DNA of 64,000 bases, taken from the NCBI GenBank assembly GCA_035360515.1, contig DAOSAY010000002.1:67789-131788 (forward strand), read 5' to 3'. Positions 4,998-24,667 of this stretch are shown piece by piece. The number at the start of each line of letters is the position of its first letter. The first letter of the stretch is position 1. The notes below the pieces were generated by a model, which worked only from the letters and a program-made list of their open reading frames with translations, was not told where the DNA came from and made no database searches. The DNA comes from Bacteroidales bacterium (GTDB lineage Bacteria > Bacteroidota > Bacteroidia > Bacteroidales > VadinHA17). A program made the translations under genes and the position numbers.

Positions 4998-4999
4998 GA

Positions 5000-5578: not shown

Positions 5579-5588
5579 TAATATATTT

Positions 5589-7070: not shown

Positions 7071-7079
7071 GTAAATAGC

Positions 7080-9643: not shown

Positions 9644-9671
9644 AATTGTAAATTTTAATTTAATAACACCT

Positions 9672-11282: not shown

Positions 11283-12863
11283 ATGGATGATAAATTGGAC
11301 AATTCAGTTAATTTTCATAAGCACAGCTCTTTAAGATGCTGTTGCGGAAACACTGACATGGGGCATCAGGGCATCAGCAGGCGAAAGTTTGTGCAGATGA
11401 CAGGTGCCGGCACTCTTGGTATAATAACAATTCAGAGGCTTACATGGGATATGCTGGCCAATGAAAGGCCAGTAGATGAATATCTTCCAGCAAGGCAACC
11501 TCTGGTTGTCAAACCTGTTCTCACCTATGAAGTGCCTGAAAGGAGGGAGAAAACAAGCTGGAGAGCATGGGGTGGAATACAGACCGAAAATGACGCCTCG
11601 GCTGAAATAGCAAGAATTAACAGCGAGCTTAAAAAGCTAAAATCTGATGCTGATTTTCCGGTTGATTTTCTTCCTGTCTCTGCTGTACGGAGCCGGCAGG
11701 ATCTGGCCGGAATAACTGACATAGACAGGGCAGATCTGATTCTTATATATGCTGCTGGTGGCGGCATGAATATTTTTGCAGAATTAAACAGCAGGGGGAA
11801 AGATATTATTTTCTTCTGCCGCCACAGGTCTGGTCCGGTTTATCTCTGGTATGAGATAATAAGTCCGCGTTACCTTCGCCAGCATACAGATGAATTGAAA
11901 GTTAAAGGGGTTGATGACAGTGATGTTGTTATTGACAGCCAGGATGAGCTCTTGTGGCGGATGAGGGCACTATGTGGGCTGAAAAACACAAGAGGTTCAA
12001 GAATTCTAGCTATAGGAGGTTTCGGAGCATGGTCGCAGCCGCTCGAAACAACAATGAAAATGGTAAAGGAGCATTACAACTTTGAAATAAGGGATATATC
12101 TTATGAAAATCTCGGGAATCTGATTAAAGAAGCAAGGGAAGACAGGGCACTCGTTAAGCAGGCAAAAAGCAGTAGTGACAGATATCTGGCAGATACCGGG
12201 ATTAAGCTTGAAACTGAAAGAAAGTATGTGGAGAATTGTTTCGTGCTCGGGGAAGTTTTTCGCAGGCTTATGGAAAGGGAAGGATGCAGGGCAATAACTG
12301 TTAATAATTGCATGGGAACAATTATGCCGATTGCTGATACAACAGCCTGTCTTACACTCAGTCTTCTCAACGATGCCGGATTCCTGGCATTCTGTGAATC
12401 GGACTTTGTAGTTATTCCTGCTGGCATCCTGCTGGCTAACATATCAGGCAAACCATCATTTCTGAATGATCCTACATATCCACATGATTGGCTCATTACT
12501 CTTGCACACTGCACTGCTCCGCGCAGAATGAATGGAATAACGCTTGAGCCTGCACGAATAATGACCCATTTTGAGTCAGATTTCGGAGCCGCTCCTAAGG
12601 TCGAAATGAAAAAAGGCCAGGTTGTGACAAATGTCATACCTGATTTTGAATTCAGAAAATACATCGGTCTTCCCGGCAAGATTGTTGAAAATCCGTTTAT
12701 GGACATTTGCCGTTCACAGATTGAAGTGAGCTTTTCGTGTGAGAGCGAAAAGGTGGCAAAAAATATGCGAGGTTTTCATTGGTTGACTGTATATGGTGAT
12801 TATTTAAAAGAAACCGGATATGCCTTAAAGAAAATAGGGATAGAGTTTGAAATTCTGACTTGA
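11283..12863 (+). CDS. Tat-signal protein with an L-fucose/L-arabinose-isomerase-like C-terminal region (function unknown)
   Basis: Twin-arginine motif SRRKFVQMTGAG. The C-terminal blocks CMGTIMP..., FCESDF and GFHWLTVYGDY recall FucI/AraA-fold proteins. ATG 11358 (MGHQGISRRKF) is a plausible alternative start. Confidence 0.45.
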   Translation: MDDKLDNSVNFHKHSSLRCCCGNTDMGHQGISRRKFVQMTGAGTLGIITIQRLTWDMLANERPVDEYLPARQPLVVKPVLTYEVPERREKTSWRAWGGIQTENDASAEIARINSELKKLKSDADFPVDFLPVSAVRSRQDLAGITDIDRADLILIYAAGGGMNIFAELNSRGKDIIFFCRHRSGPVYLWYEIISPRYLRQHTDELKVKGVDDSDVVIDSQDELLWRMRALCGLKNTRGSRILAIGGFGAWSQPLETTMKMVKEHYNFEIRDISYENLGNLIKEAREDRALVKQAKSSSDRYLADTGIKLETERKYVENCFVLGEVFRRLMEREGCRAITVNNCMGTIMPIADTTACLTLSLLNDAGFLAFCESDFVVIPAGILLANISGKPSFLNDPTYPHDWLITLAHCTAPRRMNGITLEPARIMTHFESDFGAAPKVEMKKGQVVTNVIPDFEFRKYIGLPGKIVENPFMDICRSQIEVSFSCESEKVAKNMRGFHWLTVYGDYLKETGYALKKIGIEFEILT

Positions 12864-13245
12864 AATATTATATACAGATTGTATAGCTACAAAACATTAT
12901 TTAAGAAATTTTTATATTACATTTTAACAAACCTGTCGTCCCCCTGCAGTCTGAAACCAGTATTTAATTTAAGTGCGATTTTATTTTCTTTCATTGATAT
13001 ATATCCAAAAAATCATGCTATGAATAAATGAATAATTCAGATTTAAAAGGAACTTTTAATAAATTAAATTTGCCGTTATTTGCATAACACTATTTAAATG
13101 GATGAACATCTTTATTAAATGAGACCTTCAGACGTTAAAGTGGCGGTAGAAAGAAAAAAACTGGATTGCATGGGACAGAATTGAGAATGAAGATGATGTA
13201 TCAGCCGGAATAGTTAGAATTGAAATTCAGTTTAATGTATTGTAA

Positions 13246-13719
13246 ATGGTAAAGAATAAAAAAACTCTGGTTCTTGGTATTGGAAATACAATACTTTCGG
13301 ATGATGGAATCGGCCCAAAAATTATCCGCGATCTTTCTTTGGTGTTTGATGACAATAATATTAGTTTTAAGGAAGCCTGCTGTGGAGGTATTGAAATAGC
13401 AGAACTGATTTCAGGATATGACTGTGTGGTTTTTATTGATGCAATCCATACAGGGGAAGGCAAACCTGGAGATGTTTATTTTTTTGATATTTCTGACTTC
13501 AGGGAGACAATACATCTATCCAATGTCCATGATTTAAGTTTTATTACTGCCATTGAACTTGCTAAATCTCTCGGAATGGACCTTCCAGCGAGTATAATTA
13601 TTGTCGGGGTTGAAATACTTACAGATTCAGAATTTGGTGAAGAGCTCTCACCACCATTAAAAGAAAGATATGAAACAATACTTGAAGAGGTTAAAACCTT
13701 TGTAAAAGGATTGGTGTAA
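13246..13719 (+). CDS. [NiFe]-hydrogenase maturation endopeptidase (HyaD/FrhD family)
   Basis: 157 aa with the N-terminal motif LVLGIGNTILSDDGIG typical of hydrogenase C-terminal processing proteases. Confidence 0.85.
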   Translation: MVKNKKTLVLGIGNTILSDDGIGPKIIRDLSLVFDDNNISFKEACCGGIEIAELISGYDCVVFIDAIHTGEGKPGDVYFFDISDFRETIHLSNVHDLSFITAIELAKSLGMDLPASIIIVGVEILTDSEFGEELSPPLKERYETILEEVKTFVKGLV

Positions 13720-13907
13720 TCTTGAGAACAACATAGTATCGGTGAAAAAGGAAGATCTGTAAAAATTTTAAAGCCTTATATCTATTGTTCGGTAATATTT
13801 TTATAATTTTATTACAGATAAAAGATATGGTTTTTAGACTGATCTTATTTAGAATAAGTTAAAAATTTTTCATCAATACGGATTAATAATCAGGGAGGGA
13901 ATAAATA

Positions 13908-14348
13908 ATGAGTTCAAAAGCAAAAATTCTGGTTGTCGAGGACGATGCAGACCTTGTAGCTGCAATAGTTAAAATGCTGGAAGTAAAAGGTTATGAAGTT
14001 GCATGTGCATATGATCCTCAGGAAGGATGGGAAAAACTGAAGATTCATGTGCCTGACCTGATCATTCTTGATGTAATGTTTGGAGCTAAAGGCGAATCAA
14101 AAGGCTTTGATTTTGCACAGAAAGTAAGGCTTGACAGGCAATACTCGCACATTCCCATTCTGATGATCACCGCAATTAATGCTCAGAAGCCTTATTTTAA
14201 CTTTTCACCCGAAACAGATGCTGAGTTTCTTCCGGTGGATTCCTTTATTGAGAAGCCGGTCAGATCTGAGGAATTGTTTCTTAAAGTCGAAGAACTTCTG
14301 CAGCAGAAAGTTAGTAAGTGGCATAAATGGCCTGAAAAAAATAGTTGA
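13908..14348 (+). CDS. Single-domain response regulator (receiver only)
   Basis: Receiver motifs ILVVEDD and DLIILDV, with no output domain (146 aa). It is preceded by GGGAGGG 8 nt upstream of the ATG. Confidence 0.85.
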   Translation: MSSKAKILVVEDDADLVAAIVKMLEVKGYEVACAYDPQEGWEKLKIHVPDLIILDVMFGAKGESKGFDFAQKVRLDRQYSHIPILMITAINAQKPYFNFSPETDAEFLPVDSFIEKPVRSEELFLKVEELLQQKVSKWHKWPEKNS

Positions 14349-14556
14349 TTTTAATTCTGGTTATATTACCTGCTTGAAGATAAATATTTTATTAATAATC
14401 TGATAATTCCGCACTATATTCAGCGAATATTCTCTGGCAATTCTTCACCTAAGCAATATCTTTACATTACCGGATCCAGGAGAAATTTGATTGTTTCCAG
14501 GTTGAGCTAATAGCATATATTAAATCTTCCCTTCTGCTACCGGAAGAAAATAATGA

Positions 14557-14582
14557 GTTATTGTGAAAAAAGTCACGATAAC
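14557..14582. promoter_or_regulatory. CRP/FNR-like palindromic operator candidate (gttatTGTGA-N6-TCACGataac)
   Basis: 10-bp arms matching at 9 of 10 positions. The half-sites TGTGA/TCACG are spaced by 6 nt, and the centre is about 103 bp upstream of the mvhD ATG. Confidence 0.35.
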
Positions 14583-14672
14583 TGAAAGAAAATCAGTTTA
14601 ATTACTTACTTTGAATATTTTTTATTTATATTTAATGCATGTACCTTTTAAACTAACCTAATAACTATTTCT

Positions 14673-15098
14673 ATGGAATTCAAGCCACGGATAGTTGCGT
14701 TTTTATGTAACTGGTGTTCATACACCGGTGCTGATCTTGCAGGAACCTCAAGGATGGAATATAAGCCCAATGTCAGGATAATCAGAGTGATGTGTTCCGG
14801 GCGGGTTGAGCCGACTTTTGTCCTTAAAGCATTTGCAAATGGTGCTGACGGAGTGCTTATATGTGGTTGCCACCCTGGCGACTGCCATTACCAGGAAGGT
14901 AATTACCGCTGCCTTCGCAGGTATTTGCTGCTTCAGAAGTATATCAGACAAATTGGAATTGAACCTGAACGCCTTAAACTGGAATGGATAAGTGCCAGTG
15001 AAGGGAAGCAGTTTGCTGAGCTGGTCAATAGTTTCACTGAAAAAATTAAAGAGCTGGGGCCAAGTAAAATTAAAGATACAATCAGAACATTTGCCTGA
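14673..15098 (+). CDS. mvhD: MvhD-like hydrogenase iron-sulfur (delta) subunit
   Basis: Motifs [15 protein letters not shown]...RVMCSGRV...[11 protein letters not shown], typical of the MvhD/FlpD family. Confidence 0.9.
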
Positions 15099-15115
15099 TT
15101 TAAAAACAAGAACCC

Positions 15116-16090
15116 ATGGAAGAAACAAAACCAAAGTTAAAACTGGCTGTATACTGGGCAGCTGCATGCGGTGGCTGCTGTGTATCGGTTCTCGATGTAC
15201 ATGAAAAGTTGTTTGATATTATCTCTGCTGCGGATCTGGTATTCTGGCCTATAGCCCTTGATACCAAATACCATGATGTTGAAAAAATGCCTGATGGATA
15301 TATTGATATAACACTTTTTAATGGGGCAATAAGGAACACTGAAAATGAAGAGATGGCAAAGCTTTTAAGGAAAAAAAGCAAAATTCTTGTTGCCTATGGG
15401 AGTTGTGCTCATCTGGGTGGTATTCCCGGACTTGCCAATTTTACAACAAAGGATGAAATATTTAAAAGAGTATACTTTGAAAGTGAATCAGTAGTGAATG
15501 AGAAGAACTTAATTCCGGTTCCTGAATACAAGGCAGAAGAAGGTACACTTTTCCTGCCTTCGTTTTATAATGATGTAAGGGCTCTGTCGCAGGTTACCGA
15601 ACCGGATTACTATTTACCGGGATGTCCACCCCAGAGTGAAAGGTTGCTCGAGGTTTTCAAAGCAATTGTAAGTGGTGCGGAACTGCCTCCCAAAGGTTCG
15701 GTTATTGGAGCTGAAACAAAGACCCAGTGTGATGAATGTATACGTAAAAAGACTGAGAACAAGCGTATAAAGAAGTTTTACCGCCCCTGGGAAATTAAGG
15801 ATGATGGTATTACATGTTTTATGGAACAGGGAGTTTTGTGCATGGGACCTGCAACAAGGGCAGGATGCGGGTACCGTTGTATAAAAGGTAATGCTCCATG
15901 CAGGGGATGTTATGGTCCGCCGCCGGGCGTCCCTGACCCGGGAGCCAAGATGATGTCGGCCGTTGCAAGCATTATTGATGAGAAAGACCCTGAAGGGATA
16001 AACAAAATTCTTGAAGATTTGGCAGATCCTGCCGGTACTTTTTATCGTTTTAGCCTTCCAGTGTCATTGATAAGAAGAAAAATTTTATGA
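15116..16090 (+). CDS. mvhG: [NiFe]-hydrogenase small subunit, MvhG-like (no Tat signal)
   Basis: N-terminal AACGGCCVSVLD motif and a C-terminal Cys-rich FeS region (CMGPATRAGCGYRCIKGNAPCRGCYGP). Its 4-nt ATGA overlaps the large-subunit gene. Confidence 0.85.
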   Translation: MEETKPKLKLAVYWAAACGGCCVSVLDVHEKLFDIISAADLVFWPIALDTKYHDVEKMPDGYIDITLFNGAIRNTENEEMAKLLRKKSKILVAYGSCAHLGGIPGLANFTTKDEIFKRVYFESESVVNEKNLIPVPEYKAEEGTLFLPSFYNDVRALSQVTEPDYYLPGCPPQSERLLEVFKAIVSGAELPPKGSVIGAETKTQCDECIRKKTENKRIKKFYRPWEIKDDGITCFMEQGVLCMGPATRAGCGYRCIKGNAPCRGCYGPPPGVPDPGAKMMSAVASIIDEKDPEGINKILEDLADPAGTFYRFSLPVSLIRRKIL

Positions 16091-17550
16091 AAAGAATTAC
16101 AATTGATCCCATAACCCGCCTTGAAGGTCATGGAAAAATTGAGATTTTCCTTGATGAAGAAGGTGAAGTAAAGAATGTGTTTTTTCAGGTACCTGAACTA
16201 AGGGGCTTTGAGAAATTTTGTGAGGGAAGGCCTGCTGAGGAACTTCCTTCCATAACAGCAAAGATTTGCGGTGTATGTCCCGGTTGTCACCATATGGCTT
16301 CCGGCAAGGCTGTTGATGCGGTGTTCGGTCTGGTTCCTCCAGCTACTGCCAGAAAGCTGAGGGAACTTTTTTATATGGCCCATTTTATTCACAGCCATAC
16401 AGCACATTTTTATGCACTGGCGGCACCTGATTTTGTCCTTGGGCCTGGTGCACCACCCGAAAAAAGAAATATTGTGGGTCTGATTGAGAGAGTGGGTAAA
16501 GAGATAGGTACAGAAGTCATTAGGCAGCGTAGAATAGCCCAGGAGATACAGGCCCTTCTCGGTGGTCACCAGACATTTGTTGTGATGAATATCCCTGGAG
16601 GCGTACGAAGAGGACTCTCGGAAGCTGAACGAGACTATGTTGTTGAAAAGGCAAAAGGATTTGTGGAATTTGCTCAGTTTACCCTTAAAATATTCAATGA
16701 TTTTGTACTTGGAAATAAAGATTATGTCGATCTGATAGTTAACGGGCCTTATAAGTTAACGCTTCATTCCATGGGGCTGGTTGATGCTGACAACAGGGTA
16801 AATTTTTATGATGGGAAGGTAAGAGTTGTTGATACCCATGGAAATGAGTTATGTAAATATGGCCCGGATGAATACCTCGAATATGTGGCAGAACATGTTG
16901 AACCATGGAGTTATCTTAAGTTTCCGTATCTTAAAAAAATAGGGTGGAAAGGTTTTATCGACGGACAGGATTCGGGAGTATATCATGCAACGCCGTTATC
17001 AAGACTGAATGCAGCAGATGGGATGGCTACTCCTCTGGCACAGAAAGAATACGAACGAATGTATTCAACTCTCGGAGGTAAACCTGTTCATGCTACACTT
17101 GCAATGCATTGGGCAAGACTTGTAGAACTTTTATATTCAGCCGAACGCTGTCTCGAACTTGCTATGGATCCCGATATAACCGGAAGTGAACTGAGGGCTG
17201 AGCCCGGCCCCATTGTTGGAGAAGGTGTTGGAATTGTCGAAGCCCAGAGGGGAACATTAACCCATCATTACTGGACAGATAAAAAGGGCATTATTACCAA
17301 AGCCAATATCATTGTTGGCACAACAAACAACAATGCAGCGATCTGCATGTCAATCAAGAAAGCATCGGAAGGATTAATAAAGAAAGGAATTGTTGTTGAC
17401 CAGGGCATTCTTAATATGATTGAAATGGCTTTCAGAGCATATGACCCATGCTTTTCGTGTGCAACACACAGTTTACCGGGACGAATGCCATTTATTTTAG
17501 AAATCCGTGATGCTAACGGAGGATTGTTACAGAAGATAAAAAGGGATTAG
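16087..17550 (+). CDS. mvhA: [NiFe]-hydrogenase large subunit, MvhA-like (group 3-type)
   Basis: N-terminal RLEGHGKI and the Ni-binding motif KICGVCPGCH. The C-terminal motif DPCFSCATH is followed by a 26-aa tail. Confidence 0.9.
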   Translation: MKRITIDPITRLEGHGKIEIFLDEEGEVKNVFFQVPELRGFEKFCEGRPAEELPSITAKICGVCPGCHHMASGKAVDAVFGLVPPATARKLRELFYMAHFIHSHTAHFYALAAPDFVLGPGAPPEKRNIVGLIERVGKEIGTEVIRQRRIAQEIQALLGGHQTFVVMNIPGGVRRGLSEAERDYVVEKAKGFVEFAQFTLKIFNDFVLGNKDYVDLIVNGPYKLTLHSMGLVDADNRVNFYDGKVRVVDTHGNELCKYGPDEYLEYVAEHVEPWSYLKFPYLKKIGWKGFIDGQDSGVYHATPLSRLNAADGMATPLAQKEYERMYSTLGGKPVHATLAMHWARLVELLYSAERCLELAMDPDITGSELRAEPGPIVGEGVGIVEAQRGTLTHHYWTDKKGIITKANIIVGTTNNNAAICMSIKKASEGLIKKGIVVDQGILNMIEMAFRAYDPCFSCATHSLPGRMPFILEIRDANGGLLQKIKRD

Positions 17551-17587
17551 TTTTCAGAATGAGAAACGTAATAATAAATAAATAAAC

Positions 17588-19390
17588 ATGCGAACAGGAG
17601 TCTTTTTCTGTCAGACTGCTTCAGCAGGTACCCTGAATATTGATGCAATAGCAAAATATTCAGCCAATCTGCCAGAGGTTGAAACCGTACAGATACTCAG
17701 GGTTGAGCCTTATCCGGATTTAAAATTTCTTAGTGATACAATAAAGGCATATAATCTTGAACGTATTGTAATTGCAGGAGAAACACCCGGATATTACAAA
17801 CCATTATTAACCAGGGCAGTGGCCATGGCAGGAGGCAATACAGATGAGATATATCTGGCATCTTTTCAGGAACATGGAGCAAGAGGAGAGAATGCACTCG
17901 ACCGTGCCAAAGCAATTGTAGCCTGTGCTGTAATGGGTGTTCCATTCCCTCTTGCTGCAATACCTGGCGGAAACCCGGTTAACCATGCAACCCTCATAAT
18001 CGGTGGTGGGATTGCCGGTATTCAGGCAGCCCTTGAAATAGCAAATGCAGGTAAATTGGTTTATCTCGTTGAACAAACAGGTACAATAGGAGGGCATATG
18101 GCAATGTTCGACAAGACATTTCCGACACTCGATTGCGCCGCCTGCATACTAACTCCCAAGATGGTATCAGTTGGACAACATGAGATGATTCGCCTGATGA
18201 CAAAGTCGAAGGTTATTGCTGTTACCGGAAAACCGGGTTCTTACAGGGTTAAAATAAAACAGGCGCCACGCTATGTTGATATTAAATCGTGTGTGGCATG
18301 CAGCGAGTGTGCCGATGTTTGTCCTGTTAAGGTAAAAAGTGAATTTGATGCCGGTATATCAATGCGTAAAGCTATTTACATTCCTTTTCCTCAGGCCGTT
18401 CCGAATGCTTACCTGATTGATGAAAACAGCTGTACATACCTGCTCTCCGAAGGAAAAAAATGCGGAGTATGTGCAAAAAAATGTCCCAAGGAGTGCATCA
18501 ATTTCAATGAGAAAGAGCAGATTATAGATATTGAAGTTGGCAATATTATACTGGCTACCGGATACGAGATGCTTGATGCCAGTAAGATTGAGCAGTATGG
18601 ATACGGGGTATATCCTAATGTTCTTACATCTCTTGAATTTGAGCGTTTAACAAATGCTTCCGGAGTTACAGGGGGCAGGATTGTGACCAAAACGAAGGTA
18701 TTCAACAAGAAAACCAATAAGGAAGAATGGATTTTTTCACCTGAGGGCGTTCCACCGCGCAGCATAGCGCTTATACATTGTGTAGGATCAAGAAGTAGAA
18801 AATATAACCCTTATTGCTCGCGCGTATGCTGCATGTATTCGTTGAAATTTGCGCATCTTATCAGGGAAAAAGTTCCGAATGCCAGTGTTTATGAATTTTA
18901 TATCGATATGAGGGCATTCGGTAAGGGATATGAGGAATTTGCCGAGAGAATAAAGCAGGAGGGAACATTTGTTGTAAGGGGCCATTCAGCTTCGGTTACA
19001 ATGAGCCATGGCAAAATGTATGTAAAAGGTGAGGATATTATCAATGACAGACTGGTTCAATTCGAGGTTGACATGGTTGTACTGGCAGTGGGGCTCATCC
19101 CTTCACAGGGTACTGAGGAACTGAGCAGGATGCTTGGAATACGACGTGACAGTGACGGATGGTTTTCGGAGCTTGATTATAACGGAAGTCCAACCGACAC
19201 AGATAAAGGTGGAATATATGTTGCCGGAATGTGCCAGGGACCAAAAGATATCCCGGATACTGTTGCACAGGCTTCGGCTGTGGCTGCAGGTGTCCTTAAG
19301 AGTTTAACAAGCGGTAAAGGACTTGGACATTTGAGCAGCCTTTCACTGAGTGAAATCGAATCAAGAGCTAAAGCATTGCATAAAATATAA
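17588..19390 (+). CDS. hdrA: HdrA-like FAD/FeS protein, paralog 1 (inserted ferredoxin domain)
   Basis: Dinucleotide fold IIGGGIAGIQAA and the HdrA signature CVGSRSRKYNPYCSRVCC. It has internal 4Fe-4S motifs CVACSECADVCP and CGVCAKKCP. The N-terminal domain lacks the usual cysteines. Confidence 0.85.
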   Translation: MRTGVFFCQTASAGTLNIDAIAKYSANLPEVETVQILRVEPYPDLKFLSDTIKAYNLERIVIAGETPGYYKPLLTRAVAMAGGNTDEIYLASFQEHGARGENALDRAKAIVACAVMGVPFPLAAIPGGNPVNHATLIIGGGIAGIQAALEIANAGKLVYLVEQTGTIGGHMAMFDKTFPTLDCAACILTPKMVSVGQHEMIRLMTKSKVIAVTGKPGSYRVKIKQAPRYVDIKSCVACSECADVCPVKVKSEFDAGISMRKAIYIPFPQAVPNAYLIDENSCTYLLSEGKKCGVCAKKCPKECINFNEKEQIIDIEVGNIILATGYEMLDASKIEQYGYGVYPNVLTSLEFERLTNASGVTGGRIVTKTKVFNKKTNKEEWIFSPEGVPPRSIALIHCVGSRSRKYNPYCSRVCCMYSLKFAHLIREKVPNASVYEFYIDMRAFGKGYEEFAERIKQEGTFVVRGHSASVTMSHGKMYVKGEDIINDRLVQFEVDMVVLAVGLIPSQGTEELSRMLGIRRDSDGWFSELDYNGSPTDTDKGGIYVAGMCQGPKDIPDTVAQASAVAAGVLKSLTSGKGLGHLSSLSLSEIESRAKALHKI

Positions 19391-19400
19391 ACAGAATTCT

Positions 19401-20558
19401 ATGGCTATCAGAGTTAATCCTGAGTTTATCAATGAGCTTGACCGCTTTGGTGCAGAAGATGTTCAGCTATGTTACCAGTGCGGAGATTGCTCCACTGTCT
19501 GTCCTCATGCAGATGAGGTGTACAGGTTTCCCAGAAAATCTATGAAACTGCTTCAGATGGGCCTTGAGCAGAAAATAGAAACTACTCTGGAACCATGGCT
19601 TTGCTACTATTGCGGGCAGTGTTCTGAACAATGTCCGAGGGAAGCTGATCCCGGTGAAACGATGATGAGCCTCAGGAGATGGCTGATCTCAAAATATGAT
19701 TTTACCGGTATTTCAAGGGCTTTCTATAAATCGAGAACTGTTGAGGTTTTAACAATTATTTTCGTGGCAATACTCACCGGAGCCCTTCTGCTCTATTACG
19801 GATTTACAAACGGTAATATCGGTATCTACGACGGTGAAGGAGCATTTCTTCCAAGCCATTTTGTTCACAGGTTTGACCTTAGCGTAGGTGCAATCTTGCT
19901 CGTTTTTCTTCTTATTAATGCTTTCAGGATGTGGAAAATGGTTATGGTCAGGGGAACAAATTTTCCGGTACCATGGTGGTTGTATATTAAAAAGTTTTAC
20001 CAGCTTCCGTGGCATTTTTTCACTCAGAAACGCTATTCGGAGTGTGAAAAAAAACGTGGTCATAAAATCTATATGCCGTGGCTGATTCACCTCGGACTGA
20101 TGCTCGGATATGTTACAATGCTTGTGCTGGTGATGGTTTTCGTTGAATTGCTTCAAAAGGGTCCGGAAATAAGATGGGAAGTACATGTCTTTGGTTATCT
20201 GGCCACAATAGGACTATTGGCGGGAACTATCTATTTCATCAGAGGACGTTTTAAAAAACATTATATTCAGTATAAAAAATCACATGGTACTGACTGGGTT
20301 TTTGTGATTCTCCTGTTTATGATTGTTATAACCGGAATTTCACAGCATATTTTTCACCGTACCGGTTTGATTGAAATGGCCAATATAACTTATGTTATTC
20401 ACCTGATGAGTGCTGTGCCATGGCTTTTAAGAATGCCGTTTACAAAATGGGCTCATCTTGTTTACCGGCCTCTTGCAATGTATTTTGCATCAATCAGACG
20501 TGAAGCAATTGAAAGGGATACAGCAGTTAAAGAATTATATCCTCTTGTAATTAAATAA
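19401..20558 (+). CDS. QmoC-like fusion: HdrC-like 2x[4Fe-4S] domain plus a 6-TM cytochrome-b (HdrE/NarI)-like membrane domain
   Basis: FeS motifs CYQCGDCSTVCP and CYYCGQCSEQCP are followed by six hydrophobic helices carrying several His residues (LIHLG, VHVFGY, QHIFH, VIHLM, WAHLVYRP). The start was set at ATG 19401, just after the hdrA stop at 19390. Confidence 0.7.
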   Translation: MAIRVNPEFINELDRFGAEDVQLCYQCGDCSTVCPHADEVYRFPRKSMKLLQMGLEQKIETTLEPWLCYYCGQCSEQCPREADPGETMMSLRRWLISKYDFTGISRAFYKSRTVEVLTIIFVAILTGALLLYYGFTNGNIGIYDGEGAFLPSHFVHRFDLSVGAILLVFLLINAFRMWKMVMVRGTNFPVPWWLYIKKFYQLPWHFFTQKRYSECEKKRGHKIYMPWLIHLGLMLGYVTMLVLVMVFVELLQKGPEIRWEVHVFGYLATIGLLAGTIYFIRGRFKKHYIQYKKSHGTDWVFVILLFMIVITGISQHIFHRTGLIEMANITYVIHLMSAVPWLLRMPFTKWAHLVYRPLAMYFASIRREAIERDTAVKELYPLVIK

Positions 20559-20566
20559 CCTTTACT

Positions 20567-22306
20567 ATGGAAAATCTCAGAATTGGTGTTTATATATGCA
20601 TGTGCGGGACCAATATTGCAAAGATTGTTGATGTTGAAGCTGTTGCAAAATTTGCATCAGAAGTTCCCGAAGTGGTTCTGGCAAAAAGTTATAAATACAT
20701 GTGTTCCAATCCGGGTCAGGAAATGATAATTCAGGATATTAAAGAAAATAACCTGAACAGGATTGTTGTTGCAGCCTGCAGCCCCAATATGCACGAGCGC
20801 ACATTCCGGAGCGCATTGCGTATAGCAGGGCTGAACCAGTATCTGCTTGAAATGGCAAATATCAGGGAACAGTGTAGCTGGGTTCACTCCGATCCTGTTG
20901 AGGCCACCGAAAAAGCAAAAGCACTTGTTAATGCAGCCATCTCCCGTGTTAAACTTCATGAGGAACTGGAGAGTGTATCCGCCCGGATGTGCCCCAATGT
21001 TCTTGTTATAGGCGGAGGAATAGCAGGGATGACTGCTGCACTTGAACTTGCAGATGCAGGAAATACCGTTTATCTGGTTGAAAAAGAAAATCACCTTGGA
21101 GGCAACCTTGCCAGGGTCGACCTTACAGCACCTTATCTCTATTCGGCAAGAGATTTGTTGACTGAAAGAATAACAAGGATTAACAACAATAAAAACATAA
21201 AGGTATTCTTAAGTTCCAAAGTAACAAGCCTCACCGGATACATCGGAAACTTCAGAGCCGTAATTCAAAACCTTGTTTCTATTCAGGAGGGTAAAACAAG
21301 AGATACTGAAGTTGAAATCGGTAATGTAATTGTATGCACGGGATACAAGGAATTTGATGCTTCACGCATTGTACACTACGGATACGGAAAACTGCCAAAC
21401 GTCATCACTTCATTTGAATTTGAAAAAATGCTTCGGGCAGGCAGGATCGAGACAAAGGAAGGAAAAACTCCGAAGTATGTAGCAATTATTCACTGTGTAG
21501 GAAGCAGAAGTCAGGAATTTCATTCATATTGTTCAAGAGTATGCTGTATGACAGCACTAAAATATGCTCATGAAATCAAATCAGCAATTCCCGACTGCTA
21601 TGTTTCTGATATATACATAGATATGCATGCTTTTGGCAAAGGGCATGAAGATTTTTACCGCAGTTCCTCACAGGCAAAAACTCTTTTCCTGATGTACGAA
21701 AAGGGTGACCGACCTGTAATTCACAAGGCAGGGCCAAAGGATGATTGTGGGATGCTGATTGAAGTGAATGAAAAACTTTCGGGCGAAACAATTGAAATTC
21801 CTGCAGACCTCGTCATACTTATGGTGGGGATGGAAGCAAGGGAAGATGCCTATGAAGTGGCAAGGATAGTGAATATAAGTCAGGATAAAGAAGGATGGTT
21901 CATTGAAAGCCATCCAAAGCTTGAACCTGTTGCTACCACAACTGATGGTGTTTTTATTGCCGGTACATGTGTGGCTCCTAAGGATATTCCGGATACTGTT
22001 GCTCAGGCAAGGGCAGCTGCTGCAAGAATCCTTGCACGAATAGCGAAAGAAAAAATTGAAATTGATGCACTCTATTCAGAAGTGAATCCAAATCTGTGTT
22101 CGGGATGTCGCCTCTGCAACCTTCTCTGTCCTTACAGCGCTATAGAGTTTCTTGAAGATAAAAAACAGAGTCATATTATCAGTGCTCTCTGCAAGGGATG
22201 CGGAGTGTGTGTAGCAGCCTGCCCCTCATCAGCAATTAAAGGAAGACATTTCACCGACCAGCAGATTCTCGCTCAGGTTGAAGGATTACTGGCTGAGAAA
22301 CTGTAA
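20567..22306 (+). CDS. hdrA: HdrA-like FAD/FeS protein, paralog 2 (C-terminal ferredoxin domain)
   Basis: N-terminal IGVYICMCGTNI and ACSP motifs, the fold VIGGGIAGMTAA, and the HdrA signature CVGSRSQEFHSYCSRVCC. The C-terminal 4Fe-4S motifs are CSGCRLCNLLCP and CKGCGVCVAACP. Confidence 0.85.
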   Translation: MENLRIGVYICMCGTNIAKIVDVEAVAKFASEVPEVVLAKSYKYMCSNPGQEMIIQDIKENNLNRIVVAACSPNMHERTFRSALRIAGLNQYLLEMANIREQCSWVHSDPVEATEKAKALVNAAISRVKLHEELESVSARMCPNVLVIGGGIAGMTAALELADAGNTVYLVEKENHLGGNLARVDLTAPYLYSARDLLTERITRINNNKNIKVFLSSKVTSLTGYIGNFRAVIQNLVSIQEGKTRDTEVEIGNVIVCTGYKEFDASRIVHYGYGKLPNVITSFEFEKMLRAGRIETKEGKTPKYVAIIHCVGSRSQEFHSYCSRVCCMTALKYAHEIKSAIPDCYVSDIYIDMHAFGKGHEDFYRSSSQAKTLFLMYEKGDRPVIHKAGPKDDCGMLIEVNEKLSGETIEIPADLVILMVGMEAREDAYEVARIVNISQDKEGWFIESHPKLEPVATTTDGVFIAGTCVAPKDIPDTVAQARAAAARILARIAKEKIEIDALYSEVNPNLCSGCRLCNLLCPYSAIEFLEDKKQSHIISALCKGCGVCVAACPSSAIKGRHFTDQQILAQVEGLLAEKL

Positions 22307-22338
22307 ATTCGGAATTATTATACTGACAGTATATTTTT

Positions 22339-23688
22339 ATGGAAGAAAAGCTGGTTCCGGCACATATATTCTTCCTGAGATGGTTTATCAGAATCAGGTG
22401 GATAGCTGTTTCAGCATTGATTGCCTCAGATTTTATTGTTTCACATTTTCTGAACATATCTGTCGAGGAAGATAAAATCTATATTATCGCCGGAATTCTT
22501 TTTTTACTTAACGTTTTTCACTGGATTGTTCTCAGGAGAATAAACAGAGATTCGGGTGCCAATGTTATAGGAAGGATAAAAAGAAATATCCATTTTCAGA
22601 TAATAACTGATCTGATCCTGCTTACATTCGTTATACATTATTCGGGGGGAATAGAAAATCCCCTGATATTATTCTATTTTTTTCATCTTATTATTGCAAG
22701 TTCAATATTCTCGACCTTTCTGAGCTACCTGTATGCTGCCTTTGCTTTAATACTGGCTTTGTCGCTGAGTTTTCTGGAATGCTTTCAGATTATCCCCCAT
22801 TATCCTCTGGAGGGATTTGTTAATCACGAACTTTATAAAAATGTTCTGTACGTCTCAGGTGCAGGTTTTGTATTTGCATGTACATCTGTTATGGTTGTAT
22901 GGCTCTCTCATATGATTATTAACCGGTCGATAAAAAGTGAAGAGACATACGTTAGAACGAATATTGAGCTACAGAACAAAGACAAGCTTAAAAACGAATA
23001 TGTTCTGAGGGTTACACATGACATTAAAGGACATGTTGCTGCTGTCATGAGTTGTCTTGAAGTTGTCAGGTCAAAAATAACAGGGTCGCTTAACGAGGTT
23101 CAGGAAGAATTTATTAACCGGGCTTATGATAGGGCGGAATTTCTTTCGGAATTCATAAGAGATTTACTCAACCTGACGAAAAAAAGACTTCAACGTAACG
23201 TTGAATTTGAGGATTTCAACCTTGCAGAACTTATCAACCGGGTAGTTGCTCCTGTTCAGATTCTTATCAGCGACAAAGGAATTAATTTCAATATATATGT
23301 TGACAGTTCGGTCGGGATTATCAGAGGTAATCCATATGCTATAGAGGAACTTTATTCGAACCTTTTGCTTAATTCTGTAAAATATACCCCTGGTGGAGGT
23401 CATATCGAACTGACGATTAGACGGCGTATGAACTATATTATATCTGAAATTTCAGATTCAGGTATCGGGATCCCTAAAGATGAAATCCCGAAAATATTTG
23501 ATGAATTTTACAGGGCATCAAATGTTCAGCGCGATGTAAAATCCGGAACAGGGCTTGGTCTTTCAATCGTAAAGGAAATTGTCGATAGGCATAAGGGAAA
23601 AATAAAAGTAGAAAGTGAAGAAGGAGTGTGGACTAAATTTACAGTTATGCTCCCTGTTAATCCGGAAGAACTTTCAACCTCAACCTGA
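22339..23688 (+). CDS. Membrane sensor histidine kinase, RegB/PrrB-like
   Basis: About six N-terminal TM helices, the H-box VTHDIKGHV, and HATPase_c motifs (DSGIGIP, GTGLGLSIV). The loop motif GGIENPL resembles the RegB GGxxNPF motif. Confidence 0.8.
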   Translation: MEEKLVPAHIFFLRWFIRIRWIAVSALIASDFIVSHFLNISVEEDKIYIIAGILFLLNVFHWIVLRRINRDSGANVIGRIKRNIHFQIITDLILLTFVIHYSGGIENPLILFYFFHLIIASSIFSTFLSYLYAAFALILALSLSFLECFQIIPHYPLEGFVNHELYKNVLYVSGAGFVFACTSVMVVWLSHMIINRSIKSEETYVRTNIELQNKDKLKNEYVLRVTHDIKGHVAAVMSCLEVVRSKITGSLNEVQEEFINRAYDRAEFLSEFIRDLLNLTKKRLQRNVEFEDFNLAELINRVVAPVQILISDKGINFNIYVDSSVGIIRGNPYAIEELYSNLLLNSVKYTPGGGHIELTIRRRMNYIISEISDSGIGIPKDEIPKIFDEFYRASNVQRDVKSGTGLGLSIVKEIVDRHKGKIKVESEEGVWTKFTVMLPVNPEELSTST

Positions 23689-23736
23689 AAAGATACACTT
23701 CTGTGTTTTTGTGGAATAATCTGTTCATCAATCTTG

Positions 23737-23820
23737 TACCCGGAGCCGGGGTCGAACCGGCACGGCATCGCTGCCACTGGTGTTTGAGACCAGCGCGTCT
23801 ACCATTTCCGCCATCCGGGC
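23737..23820 (-). tRNA. tRNA-Leu (anticodon CAA)
   Basis: The reverse complement reads GCCCGGATGGCGGAAATGGTAGACGCGCTGGTCTCAAACACCAGTGGCAGCGATGCCGTGCCGGTTCGACCCCGGCTCCGGGTA. It has an anticodon stem CTGGT/ACCAG with loop CTCAAAC, a long variable arm, a T-loop GGTTCGA, and a 7-bp acceptor stem with G1:U72. No CCA is encoded. Confidence 0.9.
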
Positions 23821-23878
23821 ATCCTCAAATTGTATATTCACCCCGGGTGCGAATATATATAAATTTACGGTTGAAATT

Positions 23879-24667
23879 TTACTTTTTACCTGCTTTCCCA
23901 AGGTCGAGTAGTTCCACTTTTCTGAACTCGGTTGGATGACTTTCGGCCTGGAGTGCAATATATCCCTCTTTCAGCAGTGTGCCGTCAGGGACAGGATAAT
24001 CAGCTGGTTTGTTTGTCCCTCCAACCTGAGGTTTCGAATAAGTAAGAACAGTATCCCCATTGACAATATGGTGAATAATGCTGTCGCCATATACAACAAG
24101 CTCAGCTGTAACCCATACATCACCATGATAAGTCTTTGATTTTGAATTTACACAGTGCTGGGTTACAAGATTGCCATCCATCACAATATGAGTACCGGGA
24201 GTACAGACGTTCATTGTAGTTCGTTCCGATACACCGTCGCCACCAAGTAATTGAGCTTCAATAGATACTGGAAAATCCTGATCTAGCAGCATTGACTCGG
24301 GCGACTGACAATGAAACATAATACCGTTGTTCCTGAATGCCCACGAAGGTCCTTCAGGACATTGCTCTCCTACAAACCTGTATTCAACCCTTACCTTGTA
24401 ATGTGAAAAGGGTGTTTTGTAAAATATATGCCCGTAGCTCGAGTTGAATTTGTCATATTTATCATAGCTAATTCTCAGAACACCATCTTCAACCCTGAAT
24501 GTATTATTGTAGTTCTCACCCAGAGGATGTCCTTTTATTTTAATTACCCAGCCATCAAGATTCTTGCCGTTGAAAAGCTGAATCCATTCTTCTTTTTCTT
24601 TTTTGCTGCTCTGAGAGCATGAAACGGCAATCAGTAGAATTGTGAAAAAAATAACAGTATATTTCAT
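23879..24667 (-). CDS. DUF1080 (3-keto-disaccharide hydrolase-like) secreted protein
   Basis: Signal or lipoprotein N-terminus (LLIAVSCSQ) and the motifs FNGKNLDGWV, FRVEDGVLR and LQAESHPTEFRKVELL, typical of DUF1080. Confidence 0.8.
   Translation of the reverse strand: MKYTVIFFTILLIAVSCSQSSKKEKEEWIQLFNGKNLDGWVIKIKGHPLGENYNNTFRVEDGVLRISYDKYDKFNSSYGHIFYKTPFSHYKVRVEYRFVGEQCPEGPSWAFRNNGIMFHCQSPESMLLDQDFPVSIEAQLLGGDGVSERTTMNVCTPGTHIVMDGNLVTQHCVNSKSKTYHGDVWVTAELVVYGDSIIHHIVNGDTVLTYSKPQVGGTNKPADYPVPDGTLLKEGYIALQAESHPTEFRKVELLDLGKAGKK

Follow-up and report, generated by a model that had tools for sequence, protein, structure and literature searches.

Where would electrons from H2 go when an Mvh-type hydrogenase is encoded beside a membrane module resembling the Qmo complex? 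The question is raised by a gene cluster in a Bacteroidales bacterium, located in the 64,000-nt stretch of DNA that we analysed (hereafter the window; assembly GCA_035360515.1, contig DAOSAY010000002.1, positions 67,789-131,788, forward strand). Pfam and NCBIfam profile searches and the ORF coordinates agree with an earlier note on this DNA, in that nine plus-strand ORFs of the described identities occupy 13246-23688, each where that note placed it (Table 1). From mvhD through the kinase gene the intergenic gaps range from -4 to 37 nt; mvhG and mvhA overlap by the ATGA noticed before, and the kinase gene starts 32 nt past hdrA2. Gaps of 188 and 324 nt set the response regulator gene apart on its two sides.

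Table 1. Genes of the cluster and the nrfHA pair in the window, with the main supporting matches
Feature	Coordinates	Strand	Supporting match
NrfH	5000-5578		
NrfA	5589-7070		
Hydrogenase maturation endopeptidase (HybD/HycI family)	13246-13719	+	TIGR00072 95.9 bits, PF01750
Receiver-only response regulator, 146 aa, no output domain	13908-14348	+	PF00072 58.5 bits
MvhD, [2Fe-2S] electron-transfer subunit	14673-15098	+	PF02662 FlpD 196 bits
MvhG, [NiFe] hydrogenase small subunit	15116-16090	+	NF045875 VhuG 215 bits
MvhA, [NiFe] hydrogenase large subunit	16087-17550	+	VhuA 390.8 bits, best curated family
HdrA1, QmoA-equivalent flavoprotein	17588-19390	+	HdrA 5odc_A residues 5-568, 450 bits
QmoC-type membrane subunit	19401-20558	+	NF038018 qmoC E 2.9e-58
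HdrA2, QmoB-equivalent flavoprotein	20567-22306	+	HdrA 8rvu_a residues 9-243 and 321-655, 510 bits
Membrane sensor histidine kinase	22339-23688	+	PF02518 100.9 bits; weak PF00512, PF25323

By its sequence MvhA belongs to [NiFe] group 3 and is closest to 3c, as had been expected, its best solved relative being MvhA (5odc_F, 396 bits). It contains the previously listed motifs KICGVCPGCH and DPCFSCATH and a 26-residue tail past His461; Cys61, Cys64, Cys455, Cys458 and His461 are kept in 52, 52, 51, 51 and 51 of 52 sequences, respectively. The tail is presumably removed by the maturation endopeptidase, an ortholog of which adjoins the cluster in most related loci, lying 3' of mvhA outside the Bacteroidota and upstream within them. 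The N-terminus of MvhG (MEETKPKLKLAVYWAAACGGCC) shows no twin-arginine (Tat) motif and has its first cluster cysteine at residue 18, in line with the Tat-less small subunit reported earlier. With twelve cysteines invariant in 50 sequences, MvhG is predicted to be a cytoplasmic protein with three [4Fe-4S] clusters. MvhD, in which Cys12, 15, 41, 66 and 71 are invariant (56 sequences), is the adaptor that joins the hydrogenase to an HdrA-type flavoprotein.

The membrane subunit is HdrC-like at its N-terminus, where it carries two [4Fe-4S] motifs, and continues as a fused NarI-like domain with about six transmembrane helices. Its match to the qmoC model NF038018 covers positions 4-360 of 360, with a score (198 bits) below the cut-off of 300; it also matches HdrC (7bkb_C, E 4e-14) and is 41% identical to the QmoC of Desulfofundulus thermobenzoicus, encoded there in a sat-aprBA-qmoAB cluster. 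The NarI profile PF02665 matches 26 of 45 family members, the window protein itself being sub-threshold (18.4 vs 22.9 bits). An AF2 model (pLDDT 91) contains six long helices, and in a Foldseek search of the PDB it matched the HdrC domain and, weakly, EtfD, and nothing else. The HdrC-like iron-sulfur and six-helix fusion of the earlier note therefore stands as a full-length QmoC homolog with a NarI-like membrane part, which supplies the homology to QmoC, HdrE or NarI on which that reading depended; its start is most likely ATG 19401 (385 aa), 10 nt past the hdrA1 stop, rather than GTG 19350. Eight cysteines are invariant, as are His156, 230, 262, 295 and 334 (79 of 79 clade sequences; His352 in 78), and the NarI-like domain is presumed to form a di-heme b site in contact with quinone. 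In homologs the same membrane module is fused to SdhB-like or HdrD-like domains, which fits a general quinone-coupling anchor.

The two flavoproteins were compared in a seven-way alignment with HdrA, QmoA and QmoB. HdrA1 retains the FAD site, the TrxR-domain [4Fe-4S] cluster, Cys183/186 (which correspond to HdrA Cys194/197) and an inserted ferredoxin domain with a pair of [4Fe-4S] clusters; it has a degenerate N-terminal domain and lacks a C-terminal ferredoxin domain. HdrA2 lacks the inserted ferredoxin domain and Cys194/197. These cysteine patterns are invariant in 62 HdrA1 and 57 HdrA2 sequences, each set from several phyla. The paralogs are strictly complementary in four features that are present twice in the methanogen HdrA homodimer, suggesting that they are mutually dependent. 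The single complete path left between them leads in via the C-terminal domain and out via the N-terminal cluster and the inserted domain, and is the path reported for MvhADG-HdrABC (PMC9012536). Both paralogs keep the TrxR-domain cluster and the FAD motifs, yet there is only one qmoC gene. In methanogens the TrxR-domain cluster leads to HdrC, whereas in this cluster the HdrC domain and the NarI-like membrane domain form a single protein.

In 47 of 81 related loci hdrA1-qmoC-hdrA2 adjoins mvhDGA. Such linked clusters occur in at least seven phyla (Bacteroidota, Acidobacteriota, Actinomycetota and four others), all examples being MAGs or metagenome contigs, so that the synteny sought among related Bacteroidota MAGs extends well past them. 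There are two gene orders, as the side of the core that mvhDGA occupies differs between phyla, and the genes flanking the cluster vary; an arrangement found in dozens of syntenic loci, several phyla and two gene orders is far beyond chance. Sister clusters keep the core and exchange the donor, some for an FlxDCBA-like NAD(P)H module and others for an HdrL-like protein, with MvhD retained in every case. Prior biochemical characterisation of the architecture had been a concern, and none of the publications consulted describes an Mvh hydrogenase linked to hdrA1-qmoC-hdrA2.

The two-component genes travel with the cluster in Bacteroidota only. In the kinase a multi-helix membrane domain at the N-terminus precedes the HisKA and HATPase domains, and its orthologs (51-70% identity) lie behind hdrA2 in most Bacteroidota loci and are absent from that place in other phyla. 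Receiver orthologs (66-75% identity) occupy the same position in four loci (L005, L007, L009 and L019), while other Bacteroidota loci have a more distant receiver between hdrA2 and the kinase. The earlier note suggested that menaquinol could feed NrfHA, encoded about 8 kb upstream: the genes are real, at a distance of 6.2 kb upstream from the start of the cluster, but the link is weak, as nrfHA is near the cluster in only one related locus, L009. The flavodoxin gene of the window (7080-7586) goes with nrfHA and not with the cluster.

Every module is present with its ligands intact, and these genes very probably encode an Mvh and Qmo-type complex that exchanges electrons between H2 and the quinone pool. 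On balance we favour the fuller view that mvhD-mvhG-mvhA-hdrA1-qmoC-hdrA2 specifies one membrane-bound enzyme passing electrons from H2 to menaquinone with bifurcation to ferredoxin or flavodoxin; bifurcation itself, as suggested by the cofactor architecture, appears to us an even prospect. In this enzyme the group 3c-type hydrogenase would dock via MvhD on an asymmetric HdrA1/HdrA2 heterodimer, which QmoC would anchor in the membrane. H2 would be oxidised at the [NiFe] site of MvhA, and electrons would pass through the three [4Fe-4S] clusters of MvhG and the [2Fe-2S] cluster of MvhD, enter HdrA2 at its C-terminal ferredoxin domain and arrive at FAD, where the pair would be split. The high-potential electron would reach menaquinone by way of the TrxR-domain [4Fe-4S] cluster and then QmoC, with its two HdrC-like clusters and b hemes. 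The low-potential electron would take the HdrA2 N-terminal cluster, to which HdrA1 contributes the completing Cys186, and would leave for free ferredoxin or flavodoxin through the inserted ferredoxin domain of HdrA1. The net reaction would be 2 H2 + MK + 2 Fd(ox) -> MKH2 + 2 Fd(red) + 2 H+, with menaquinone standing in for the heterodisulfide and HdrB of methanogens. Given textbook potentials of -414 mV for H2, -74 mV for menaquinone and about -450 to -500 mV for ferredoxin, this coupled reaction would be exergonic. The cluster may point to an undescribed way of splitting H2 electrons between a membrane quinone and ferredoxin.

By the same potentials the step from H2 to menaquinone runs about 340 mV downhill and needs no bifurcation, and the proteins might form a non-bifurcating cytoplasmic H2:menaquinone oxidoreductase in which HdrA1/HdrA2 are a mere wire from MvhD to QmoC and no ferredoxin is reduced. 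This would agree with the lack of a conserved ferredoxin or flavodoxin gene inside the cluster in the related loci compared, and canonical Qmo has never been shown to bifurcate (PMC3333476). However, the HdrA1 inserted domain and the HdrA2 N-terminal cluster with HdrA1 Cys186 are invariant in all sequences examined. Their equivalents constitute the ferredoxin branch in methanogen HdrA, here split over the two paralogs, and invariant ligands are hard to explain if that branch is unused. Nor does a plain wire need a pair of flavoproteins of about 600 residues, and we consider it unlikely.

A bifurcating enzyme might also run in reverse, oxidising menaquinol and reduced ferredoxin together (confurcation) and evolving H2 as an electron sink in anaerobic Bacteroidales, many of which are fermenters. 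From MKH2 (-74 mV) to H2 (-414 mV), however, is about 340 mV uphill, towards which, under standard conditions, reduced ferredoxin contributes below 100 mV, and this mode would therefore be feasible at very low H2 only. While published statements consider group 3 hydrogenases bidirectional, and confurcation was the original Qmo proposal (PMC3333476), the cluster is common in MAGs of soil Acidobacteriota and Thermoleophilia, where H2 uptake is more usual, making H2 evolution quite improbable as the main function.

HdrA1 is the counterpart of QmoA, the subunit reported in contact with AprAB (PMC3333476), and V. moutnovskia and A. degensii, both sulfate reducers, have type II Qmo (PMC10504309). 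HdrA1 might accordingly feed a dedicated protein partner whose gene lies elsewhere, for instance APS reductase or another reductase, with H2 via Mvh and menaquinol via QmoC as co-donors, as proposed for sulfate reducers. Yet none of the scanned window ORFs of at least 100 aa matched CCG, AprA, AprB or Sat profiles, and tblastn of the window with AprA, AprB, Sat and HdrD from a sulfate reducer gave no match, bearing out the earlier statement that CCG-domain proteins and AprAB are missing. HdrB/HdrD and AprAB are likewise absent from the 47 syntenic loci. AprBA and Sat were not found within about 10 kb of any Mvh-linked locus, whereas they were readily detected beside canonical qmoABC, which alone they adjoin (L042, L081, L083). 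No further conserved neighbour gene family emerged around the related loci, and a dedicated reductase partner is very unlikely. That MvhADG has a soluble partner (for example HdrA2 by itself or an HdrABC elsewhere) and HdrA1-QmoC is a distinct quinone-linked enzyme might be read from the shifting side of the mvhDGA block, but is extremely doubtful given the interdependent HdrA pair, the tight packing on one strand, a linkage that survives rearrangement and spans phyla, and an MvhD that stays beside the core when the donor module changes.

The favoured membrane-bound Mvh-Qmo enzyme is best understood against known Qmo types. HdrA1 matches QmoA domain for domain, and HdrA2, whose closest Qmo counterpart is QmoB, matches it minus the MvhD domain that canonical QmoB carries fused at its C-terminus. 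The split of features between QmoA and QmoB is thus mirrored here, with MvhD as a separate gene; outside the Bacteroidota mvhD lies 0-3 nt behind hdrA2, which is the QmoB domain order. In sequence both paralogs are nearer to methanogen HdrA than to canonical Qmo (for HdrA1, 42% identity to HdrA vs 33-35% to QmoA), in agreement with the published "type II Qmo". The Qmo-like module of the earlier note, two HdrA paralogs and an HdrC/membrane fusion, hence holds in its domain correspondence to QmoA, QmoB and QmoC, but as its flavoproteins are HdrA-type in sequence, it falls in the type II class rather than with canonical Qmo.

Profile searches against Pfam and NCBIfam recovered all nine forward-strand genes that the earlier note had proposed for the cluster and gave an identity to each of them (see table). 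From mvhD to the histidine kinase the genes are separated by intergenic distances of -4 to 37 nt, including the ATGA overlap of mvhG and mvhA that had been described before, and the protease and regulator genes are more widely spaced, with gaps of 188 and 324 nt. The start of the qmoC-like gene is most likely the ATG at 19401, 10 nt past the hdrA1 stop codon, which corrects the start first called at 19350. A scan of positions 12800-24000 for sigma-70 promoters and intrinsic terminators returned the same counts as shuffled controls and is thus uninformative on operon structure; Bacteroidota promoters fall outside its coverage. A tRNA-Leu gene (anticodon CAA; 23736-23820, reverse strand), 48 nt past the kinase stop codon, marks the downstream boundary of the cluster. 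Directly upstream of the cluster lies a 526-residue ORF (11283-12863, forward strand) for which Pfam gave no match at E <= 1e-5 and the related loci no counterpart. The remaining ORFs of the window that were scanned have unrelated functions, except for NrfH/NrfA (5000-7070) and a flavodoxin (7080-7586, reverse strand). The reported absence of AprA and AprB held both in the Pfam scan of these ORFs and in tblastn searches with sulfate-reducer proteins, and the same two approaches detected no Sat in the window.

Genes of the hydrogenase, flavoprotein and membrane-anchor cluster
Gene product	Coordinates	Strand	Evidence
Hydrogenase maturation endopeptidase	13246-13719	+	profile search
Receiver-only response regulator	13908-14348	+	profile search
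MvhD/FlpD	14673-15098	+	profile search; FlpD 196 bits
VhuG-like small subunit (MvhG)	15116-16090	+	profile search
VhuA-like large subunit (MvhA)	16087-17550	+	profile search
HdrA-like protein, 600 aa (HdrA1)	17588-19390	+	profile search
QmoC-like protein with HdrC-like two-cluster domain	19350-20558 (as first called)	+	NCBIfam qmoC over whole length, E 2.9e-58
Second HdrA-like protein, 579 aa (HdrA2)	20567-22306	+	profile search
Histidine kinase	22339-23688	+	profile search

The large subunit MvhA contains the KICGVCPGCH and DPCFSCATH motifs and the 26-residue tail that had been read from it, and its ligands Cys61/64, Cys455/458 and His461 are kept in 51 or 52 of 52 sequences. The cleavable tail typical of group 3c comprises the 26 residues after His461, and the protease gene lies within the cluster. 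The N-terminus of MvhG (MEETKPKLKLAVYWAAACGGCC) shows no twin-arginine motif, in line with the lack of a Tat signal noted earlier, and its 12 invariant cysteines in the alignment fit three FeS clusters; MvhD likewise displays conserved cysteines in addition to its FlpD match. The best solved relative of MvhA is 5odc_F, the MvhA of Methanothermococcus thermolithotrophicus (396 bits), nearly equalled by 7t2r_D (393 bits; deposited as "NiFe hydrogenase large subunit"), which we take to belong to HydABCSL, an electron-bifurcating enzyme from Acetomicrobium mobile. Two other MvhA/VhuA chains reach 379 and 352 bits; the NAD-reducing 5xf9_D follows with 328 bits, and neither the group 1 enzymes nor FrhA exceed 133 bits. 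The best NCBIfam family is VhuA, with a score (390.8 bits) that lies below the equivalog cut-off of 800. That the best relatives are MvhA/VhuA chains and the best family VhuA suggests a cytoplasmic group 3 hydrogenase, which by structure and family scores would be nearest to group 3c and is accompanied by MvhD, a hallmark of that group. HdrB, the CCG-domain partner of group 3c, is not found among the window ORFs scanned, which by Pfam contain no CCG-domain protein at all, as the earlier note had claimed. A tblastn search with the HdrD of a sulfate reducer likewise recovered no such protein in the window; in the related loci it detected nothing adjoining the cluster, and its sole matches were to the ferredoxin domain of QmoC itself.

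The membrane protein, for which homology to QmoC had been anticipated, matches the NCBIfam family NF038018 along its full length; the score of 198 bits against a cut-off of 300 suggests that it is not an equivalog of canonical QmoC. Over its first 100 residues it matches HdrC from Hdr complexes of known structure (E 4e-14). Among 45 diverse representatives of the family, one of the eight cluster cysteines is missing from a single sequence and the other seven are invariant, as are His230 and His334; His352 occurs in 44, and nine histidines are conserved within the closer QmoC clade. The AlphaFold2 model (pLDDT 91) displays the FeS domain, six long helices and then a C-terminal helix. A Foldseek search of the PDB with this model retrieved the HdrC domain and a weak match to mycobacterial EtfD (probability 0.95). 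NarI was not among these matches, so the relationship to NarI rests on family-wide matches to the Pfam NarI domain (PF02665), which is detected in 26 of the 45 members (best E 4e-8) and is sub-threshold in the window protein. Desulfofundulus thermobenzoicus, a sulfate reducer in culture, encodes a homolog with 41% identity within a sat-aprBA-qmoA-qmoB-hdrD-qmoC cluster. Taken together, these features indicate that the protein truly belongs to the QmoC family, whose members serve as anchors for quinone coupling; its heme-binding capacity is putative. Elsewhere in the family the membrane module is fused to an SdhB-like [2Fe-2S] domain (P0152) or to HdrD-like Fer4 and CCG domains (P0138 and P0203), and these architectures suggest that other enzymes, too, employ it as their anchor to quinone.

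The two HdrA-like proteins form a complementary pair. HdrA1 aligns to residues 5-568 of methanogen HdrA and has the inserted ferredoxin domain and no C-terminal one; HdrA2 aligns to residues 9-243 and 321-655 and has the C-terminal domain and no inserted one. In the alignment of HdrA1 from the window and 61 orthologs from related loci (n=62), Cys183/186 (equivalent to HdrA Cys194/197), the eight cysteines of the inserted domain and the [4Fe-4S] site of the TrxR domain are invariant, and the ligands of the N-terminal cluster are lost. In the corresponding alignment of HdrA2 and 56 orthologs (n=57), five N-terminal cysteines, the TrxR-domain cluster and eight C-terminal cysteines are invariant, and nothing is found at the positions equivalent to HdrA 194/197. 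[quoted passage not shown] The complementary cysteine patterns suggest that exactly one copy of each branch is kept across the pair, neither paralog being complete alone. Rather than a single symmetric HdrA with six [4Fe-4S] sites, as in HdrABC, we find the sites divided between two paralogs. A seven-way alignment of HdrA, HdrA1 and HdrA2 with QmoA and QmoB from two apr-linked clusters showed that QmoA has Cys197 and the inserted domain, as does HdrA1, and that QmoB combines the N-terminal ligands and the C-terminal domain, both shared with HdrA2, with a fused MvhD domain. By these four features (Cys197, inserted domain, N-terminal ligands, C-terminal domain) HdrA1 follows the QmoA pattern and HdrA2 the QmoB pattern. 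HdrA2 stops after the C-terminal ferredoxin domain, MvhD being a separate gene, and the QmoB proteins of loci L042 and L085 carry the FlpD (MvhD-like) domain. In overall identity HdrA1 is closer to M. thermolithotrophicus HdrA (42%) than to QmoA (33-35%), and HdrA2 is closer to HdrA (42-49%) than to QmoB (28-31%).

The QmoC-like protein is represented by more than 120 database clusters at identities of at least 73%, mostly from Bacteroidales MAGs, and a search seeded with an acidobacteriotal copy from a Holophaga MAG returned 3040 clusters at E <= 1e-40. When species-representative genomes were scanned with 14 closer sequences, relatives were found encoded in 598 stretches; the best 80 of these 598, together with one metagenome locus (L001), gave 81 distinct loci that were searched by tblastn with the window proteins. 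The hdrA1-qmoC-hdrA2 core directly adjoins mvhD-mvhG-mvhA in 47 of the 81, and in five more, which are cut by contig ends, mvhA is still visible. The gene order in Bacteroidota is mvhDGA-hdrA1-qmoC-hdrA2; the other order, hdrA1-qmoC-hdrA2-mvhD-mvhG-mvhA-protease, is found in Chrysiogenota, Acidobacteriota, Actinomycetota (Thermoleophilia, Gaiellales), Sumerlaeota, Latescibacterota and Krumholzibacteriota, and here mvhD abuts hdrA2, matching the domain order of QmoB. In a rough neighbour-joining tree of QmoC the Bacteroidota copies group together, with Chrysiogenota adjacent. Flanking genes vary among the loci, and the kinase and receiver accompany the cluster in Bacteroidota only. Clustering of neighbouring genes found no further family widely shared among the loci; as it used longest-ORF calls, with antisense artefacts in GC-rich loci, it was used solely for this purpose. 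The best 80 of 598 genome loci, the cluster members and the Holophaga-seeded homolog search contained no cultured carrier, the only cultured organism encountered being D. thermobenzoicus with its distant apr-linked QmoC.

Several individual loci deserve separate mention. Two candidate exceptions to the cluster (L017 and L040) were dismissed as frameshifted assemblies: in these long-read MAG contigs mvhA, hdrA1 and hdrA2 are split over several frames (L017 6693-8155; L040 8173-12896 and 14309-15761), and the broken frames are probably assembly frameshifts rather than pseudogenes. Two loci binned as Patescibacteria or Saccharimonadales (L024 and L061) contain the full cluster or a core with a Flx-type module in a near-identical arrangement, with copies closest in sequence to those of Chrysiogenia and Acidobacteriota; their placement is probably a result of misbinning. 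A Bacteroidales MAG (L010) encodes a second, more distant qmoA-qmoB-qmoC-like set (14368-18736, reverse strand; 26-33% identity) on the opposite strand, 2 kb from its Mvh-linked cluster; any apr genes upstream of this set would lie beyond the end of the locus.

In other relatives the core is associated with different donor modules. In L047 (4683-12879) and six further loci (L050, L051, L060, L061, L062 and L064), from Acidobacteriota and Myxococcota MAGs, hdrA1-qmoC-hdrA2 is preceded by a non-hydrogenase module of four genes, which encode MvhD, two FeS proteins (one with a Fer4_22 domain) and a FAD/NAD-binding protein with FAD_binding_6, NAD_binding_1 and DHODB Fe-S ([2Fe-2S]) domains. These architectures suggest a FlxDCBA-like NAD(P)H module, and with it the cluster would encode an NADH:quinone/ferredoxin counterpart of the enzyme. 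A variant from Actinomycetes (L057 3664-11158; also L052, L068, L070, L072, L076 and L082) encodes, in order, a TusA-domain protein, MvhD, a GltD/HdrL-like NAD(P)H flavoprotein of 972 residues, just one HdrA-like protein and QmoC. Given the Mvh, Flx-like and HdrL-like variants, the QmoC-anchored flavoprotein core looks like a platform that takes different donor modules through MvhD. Three Myxococcota loci, from Anaeromyxobacteraceae, Myxococcales and Polyangiaceae MAGs (L042 2955-11967, L081 and L083), instead contain the canonical aprB-aprA-(CxxCxxCC protein)-qmoA-qmoB-qmoC-sat cluster; their AprA is 72-74% identical to that of Desulfofundulus and their QmoC 49-50% identical to the QmoC-like protein of the window.

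These observations support, by motifs and conserved synteny, the proposal of the earlier note that the locus encodes an H2:menaquinone oxidoreductase built of Mvh and a Qmo-like module, and the wiring from H2 through MvhD and the HdrA pair to QmoC would follow from both kinds of evidence. We further infer complex formation, the direction of electron flow, bifurcation and heme binding; the cofactor architecture that underlies bifurcation in HdrA is present. [quoted passage not shown] One electron would then take the downhill route, from the TrxR-domain cluster over both clusters of QmoC and the b hemes to menaquinone, and the other would be driven uphill, via the N-terminal cluster that the two paralogs share and the domain inserted in HdrA1, to ferredoxin or flavodoxin. 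Textbook potentials of -414 mV for H2, -74 mV for menaquinone and about -450 to -500 mV for ferredoxin make this coupling exergonic. The chief alternative, an H2:menaquinone oxidoreductase that reduces no ferredoxin, is disfavoured because the whole ferredoxin branch is strictly conserved. The enzyme might also run in reverse, evolving H2 from menaquinol and reduced ferredoxin, which would be thermodynamically demanding. A Qmo-like role in feeding an unlinked APS reductase is disfavoured since aprBA is absent near every Mvh-linked core: tblastn with AprA, AprB and Sat of D. thermobenzoicus gave no match in the window or in any Mvh-linked locus and matched only L042, L081 and L083, so that among the loci compared AprBA occurs only beside canonical qmoABC.

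The earlier note had also placed NrfHA about 8 kb upstream as a possible outlet for the menaquinol. The genes are indeed present, at a distance of 6.2 kb, and are separated from the cluster by oppositely oriented genes for a 2-oxoacid dehydrogenase complex. The latter (7601-10982, reverse strand) encode an E2 and an E1 of 700 aa in which alpha and beta are fused, and sit between the nrfHA-flavodoxin genes and the hydrogenase cluster. In the window, nrfHA belong to a four-gene block (4647-7586) of a DUF190/COG1993 protein, NrfH, NrfA and the oppositely oriented flavodoxin, and the same block occurs in the related locus L009 (12880-15838; 73-82% identity). L009 is the only relative in which the block lies near the cluster, downstream there and upstream in the window, and the flavodoxin travels with nrfHA and not with the hydrogenase. 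NrfHA as an operonic partner is ruled out by the intervening opposite-strand genes and by proximity in only one other locus; a menaquinone pool shared by the enzyme and NrfHA is plausible.

The locus is thus a recombination of known modules that is widespread and conserved and appears to have gone unrecognised so far: the mvhDGA-hdrA-qmoC-hdrA linkage is described in none of the papers that we consulted from full-text searches outside subscription journals. We tentatively suggest, with somewhat less than even confidence, that a new class of flavin-based bifurcating enzymes can be recognised here for the first time, an H2:menaquinone/ferredoxin oxidoreductase in which a group 3c hydrogenase is joined to a type II Qmo module. 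Such an enzyme would be common among uncultured members of Bacteroidota, Acidobacteriota, Actinomycetota and further phyla, and would have a Flx-type sibling driven by NADH. Group 3c "Mvh" enzymes are reported from many bacterial MAGs, where "MvhADG-HdrABC" is the routine annotation, also in MAG studies on phyla in which this cluster occurs, though their carriers make no CoM/CoB heterodisulfide; the cluster offers a concrete alternative acceptor, namely the menaquinone pool reached through the QmoC anchor, and if the suggestion holds it would explain how bacteria lacking the heterodisulfide use these hydrogenases. It also touches an old question about sulfate reducers, namely which partner binds QmoB at its MvhD domain and whether Qmo bifurcates or confurcates (Ramos 2012, PMC3333476). 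In that study a hydrogenase was proposed, by analogy to Mvh, as the missing third partner of Qmo via the MvhD-like domain of QmoB, and similar speculation exists for Archaeoglobus (Hocking et al. 2014). Here the hypothesised hydrogenase partner is encoded alongside the Qmo module, with an NADH module in its place in sister loci. If our suggestion holds, the long-sought third partner site of Qmo complexes would be the MvhD domain of QmoB, serving as a dock for a low-potential donor module. The strict complementarity of HdrA1 and HdrA2 presents a natural "half-of-sites" HdrA that could help to tell which clusters make up the ferredoxin branch, and the cluster makes an open question of Qmo/Hdr bioenergetics directly testable. 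If the enzyme bifurcates, abundant soil, sediment and digester bacteria would use H2 to reduce ferredoxin and pay for this by reducing quinone, and the reading of H2 metabolism from metagenomes would change.

Among known systems, MvhADG-HdrABC (5ODC, 8RVU) shares with the window cluster the hydrogenase trio of MvhA, MvhG and MvhD, an HdrA-type flavoprotein (42-49% identity) with the same FAD and cluster motifs, and a downstream HdrC-like domain with two [4Fe-4S] motifs. The window cluster lacks HdrB with its CCG domains and non-cubane clusters, and so has no disulfide-reducing site; moreover, its HdrC domain is fused to a cytochrome-b-like membrane domain, two complementary paralogs replace the symmetric HdrA homodimer, and the high-potential acceptor is predicted to be menaquinone rather than CoM-S-S-CoB. 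QmoABC type I of sulfate reducers and green sulfur bacteria resembles it in possessing two HdrA-derived flavoproteins and an HdrC/NarI-like fusion, with QmoC homologous over its full length and HdrA1 showing the Cys197 and inserted ferredoxin domain of QmoA. In contrast to type I, MvhD has a gene of its own and is not part of QmoB, HdrA1 has retained, in degenerate form, the N-terminal domain that is absent from QmoA, the gene order is A-C-B, HdrA1 and HdrA2 are only 28-35% identical to QmoA and QmoB, and the cluster contains a hydrogenase in place of a linkage to aprBA/sat. As both paralogs are closer to HdrA than to the Qmo subunits, they appear, together with QmoC, to fit the definition of type II Qmo by identities rather than by tree placement, a type that is reportedly also attributed to Chernyh 2020. 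This type is defined by A and B subunits closer to typical HdrA than to bacterial QmoAB, and is known from Vulcanisaeta moutnovskia, Ammonifex degensii and organisms devoid of Dsr or Apr, with no function given; the main text and supplementary text of the study mention neither Mvh nor any hydrogenase (Neukirchen 2023, PMC10504309). For A. degensii the same study reports two copies of type II QmoC. A STRING-based preprint connects the HdrA of this organism with an F420-non-reducing hydrogenase, and it reportedly grows on H2 while reducing nitrate to ammonium.

Tandem or fused HdrA pairs have been proposed as complementary heterodimers in ANME archaea (Chadwick 2022, PMC9012536). As in the window, complementary N-terminal domains and ligands, Cys197 and ferredoxin domains break the two-fold symmetry of HdrA in these pairs, but they are archaeal, occur in other gene contexts and have not been described with a QmoC-type membrane subunit and Mvh. 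In FlxABCD-HdrABC of Desulfovibrio an MvhD-type adaptor (FlxD) similarly joins the donor module to HdrA, and a Flx-like module (FlxD, two FeS proteins and a FlxA-like protein) takes the place of Mvh in sister clusters such as L047; the window cluster differs in having a hydrogenase instead of Flx, and QmoC instead of HdrBC/DsrC on the acceptor side. Group 1 uptake [NiFe] hydrogenases pass electrons from H2 to quinone via a di-heme cytochrome b, an overall flow like that proposed here. However, they are periplasmic, Tat-exported, devoid of a flavoprotein and generate pmf by a redox loop, whereas the window enzyme would be cytoplasmic and route its electrons through HdrA-type flavins. Finally, FixABCX/EtfABCX couple the oxidation of a mid-potential donor to the joint reduction of quinone and of ferredoxin or flavodoxin (PMC6085437). 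Their donor is NADH and their proteins are unrelated to those of the window, and the reaction logic that they would share with the enzyme predicted here is a functional analogy only.
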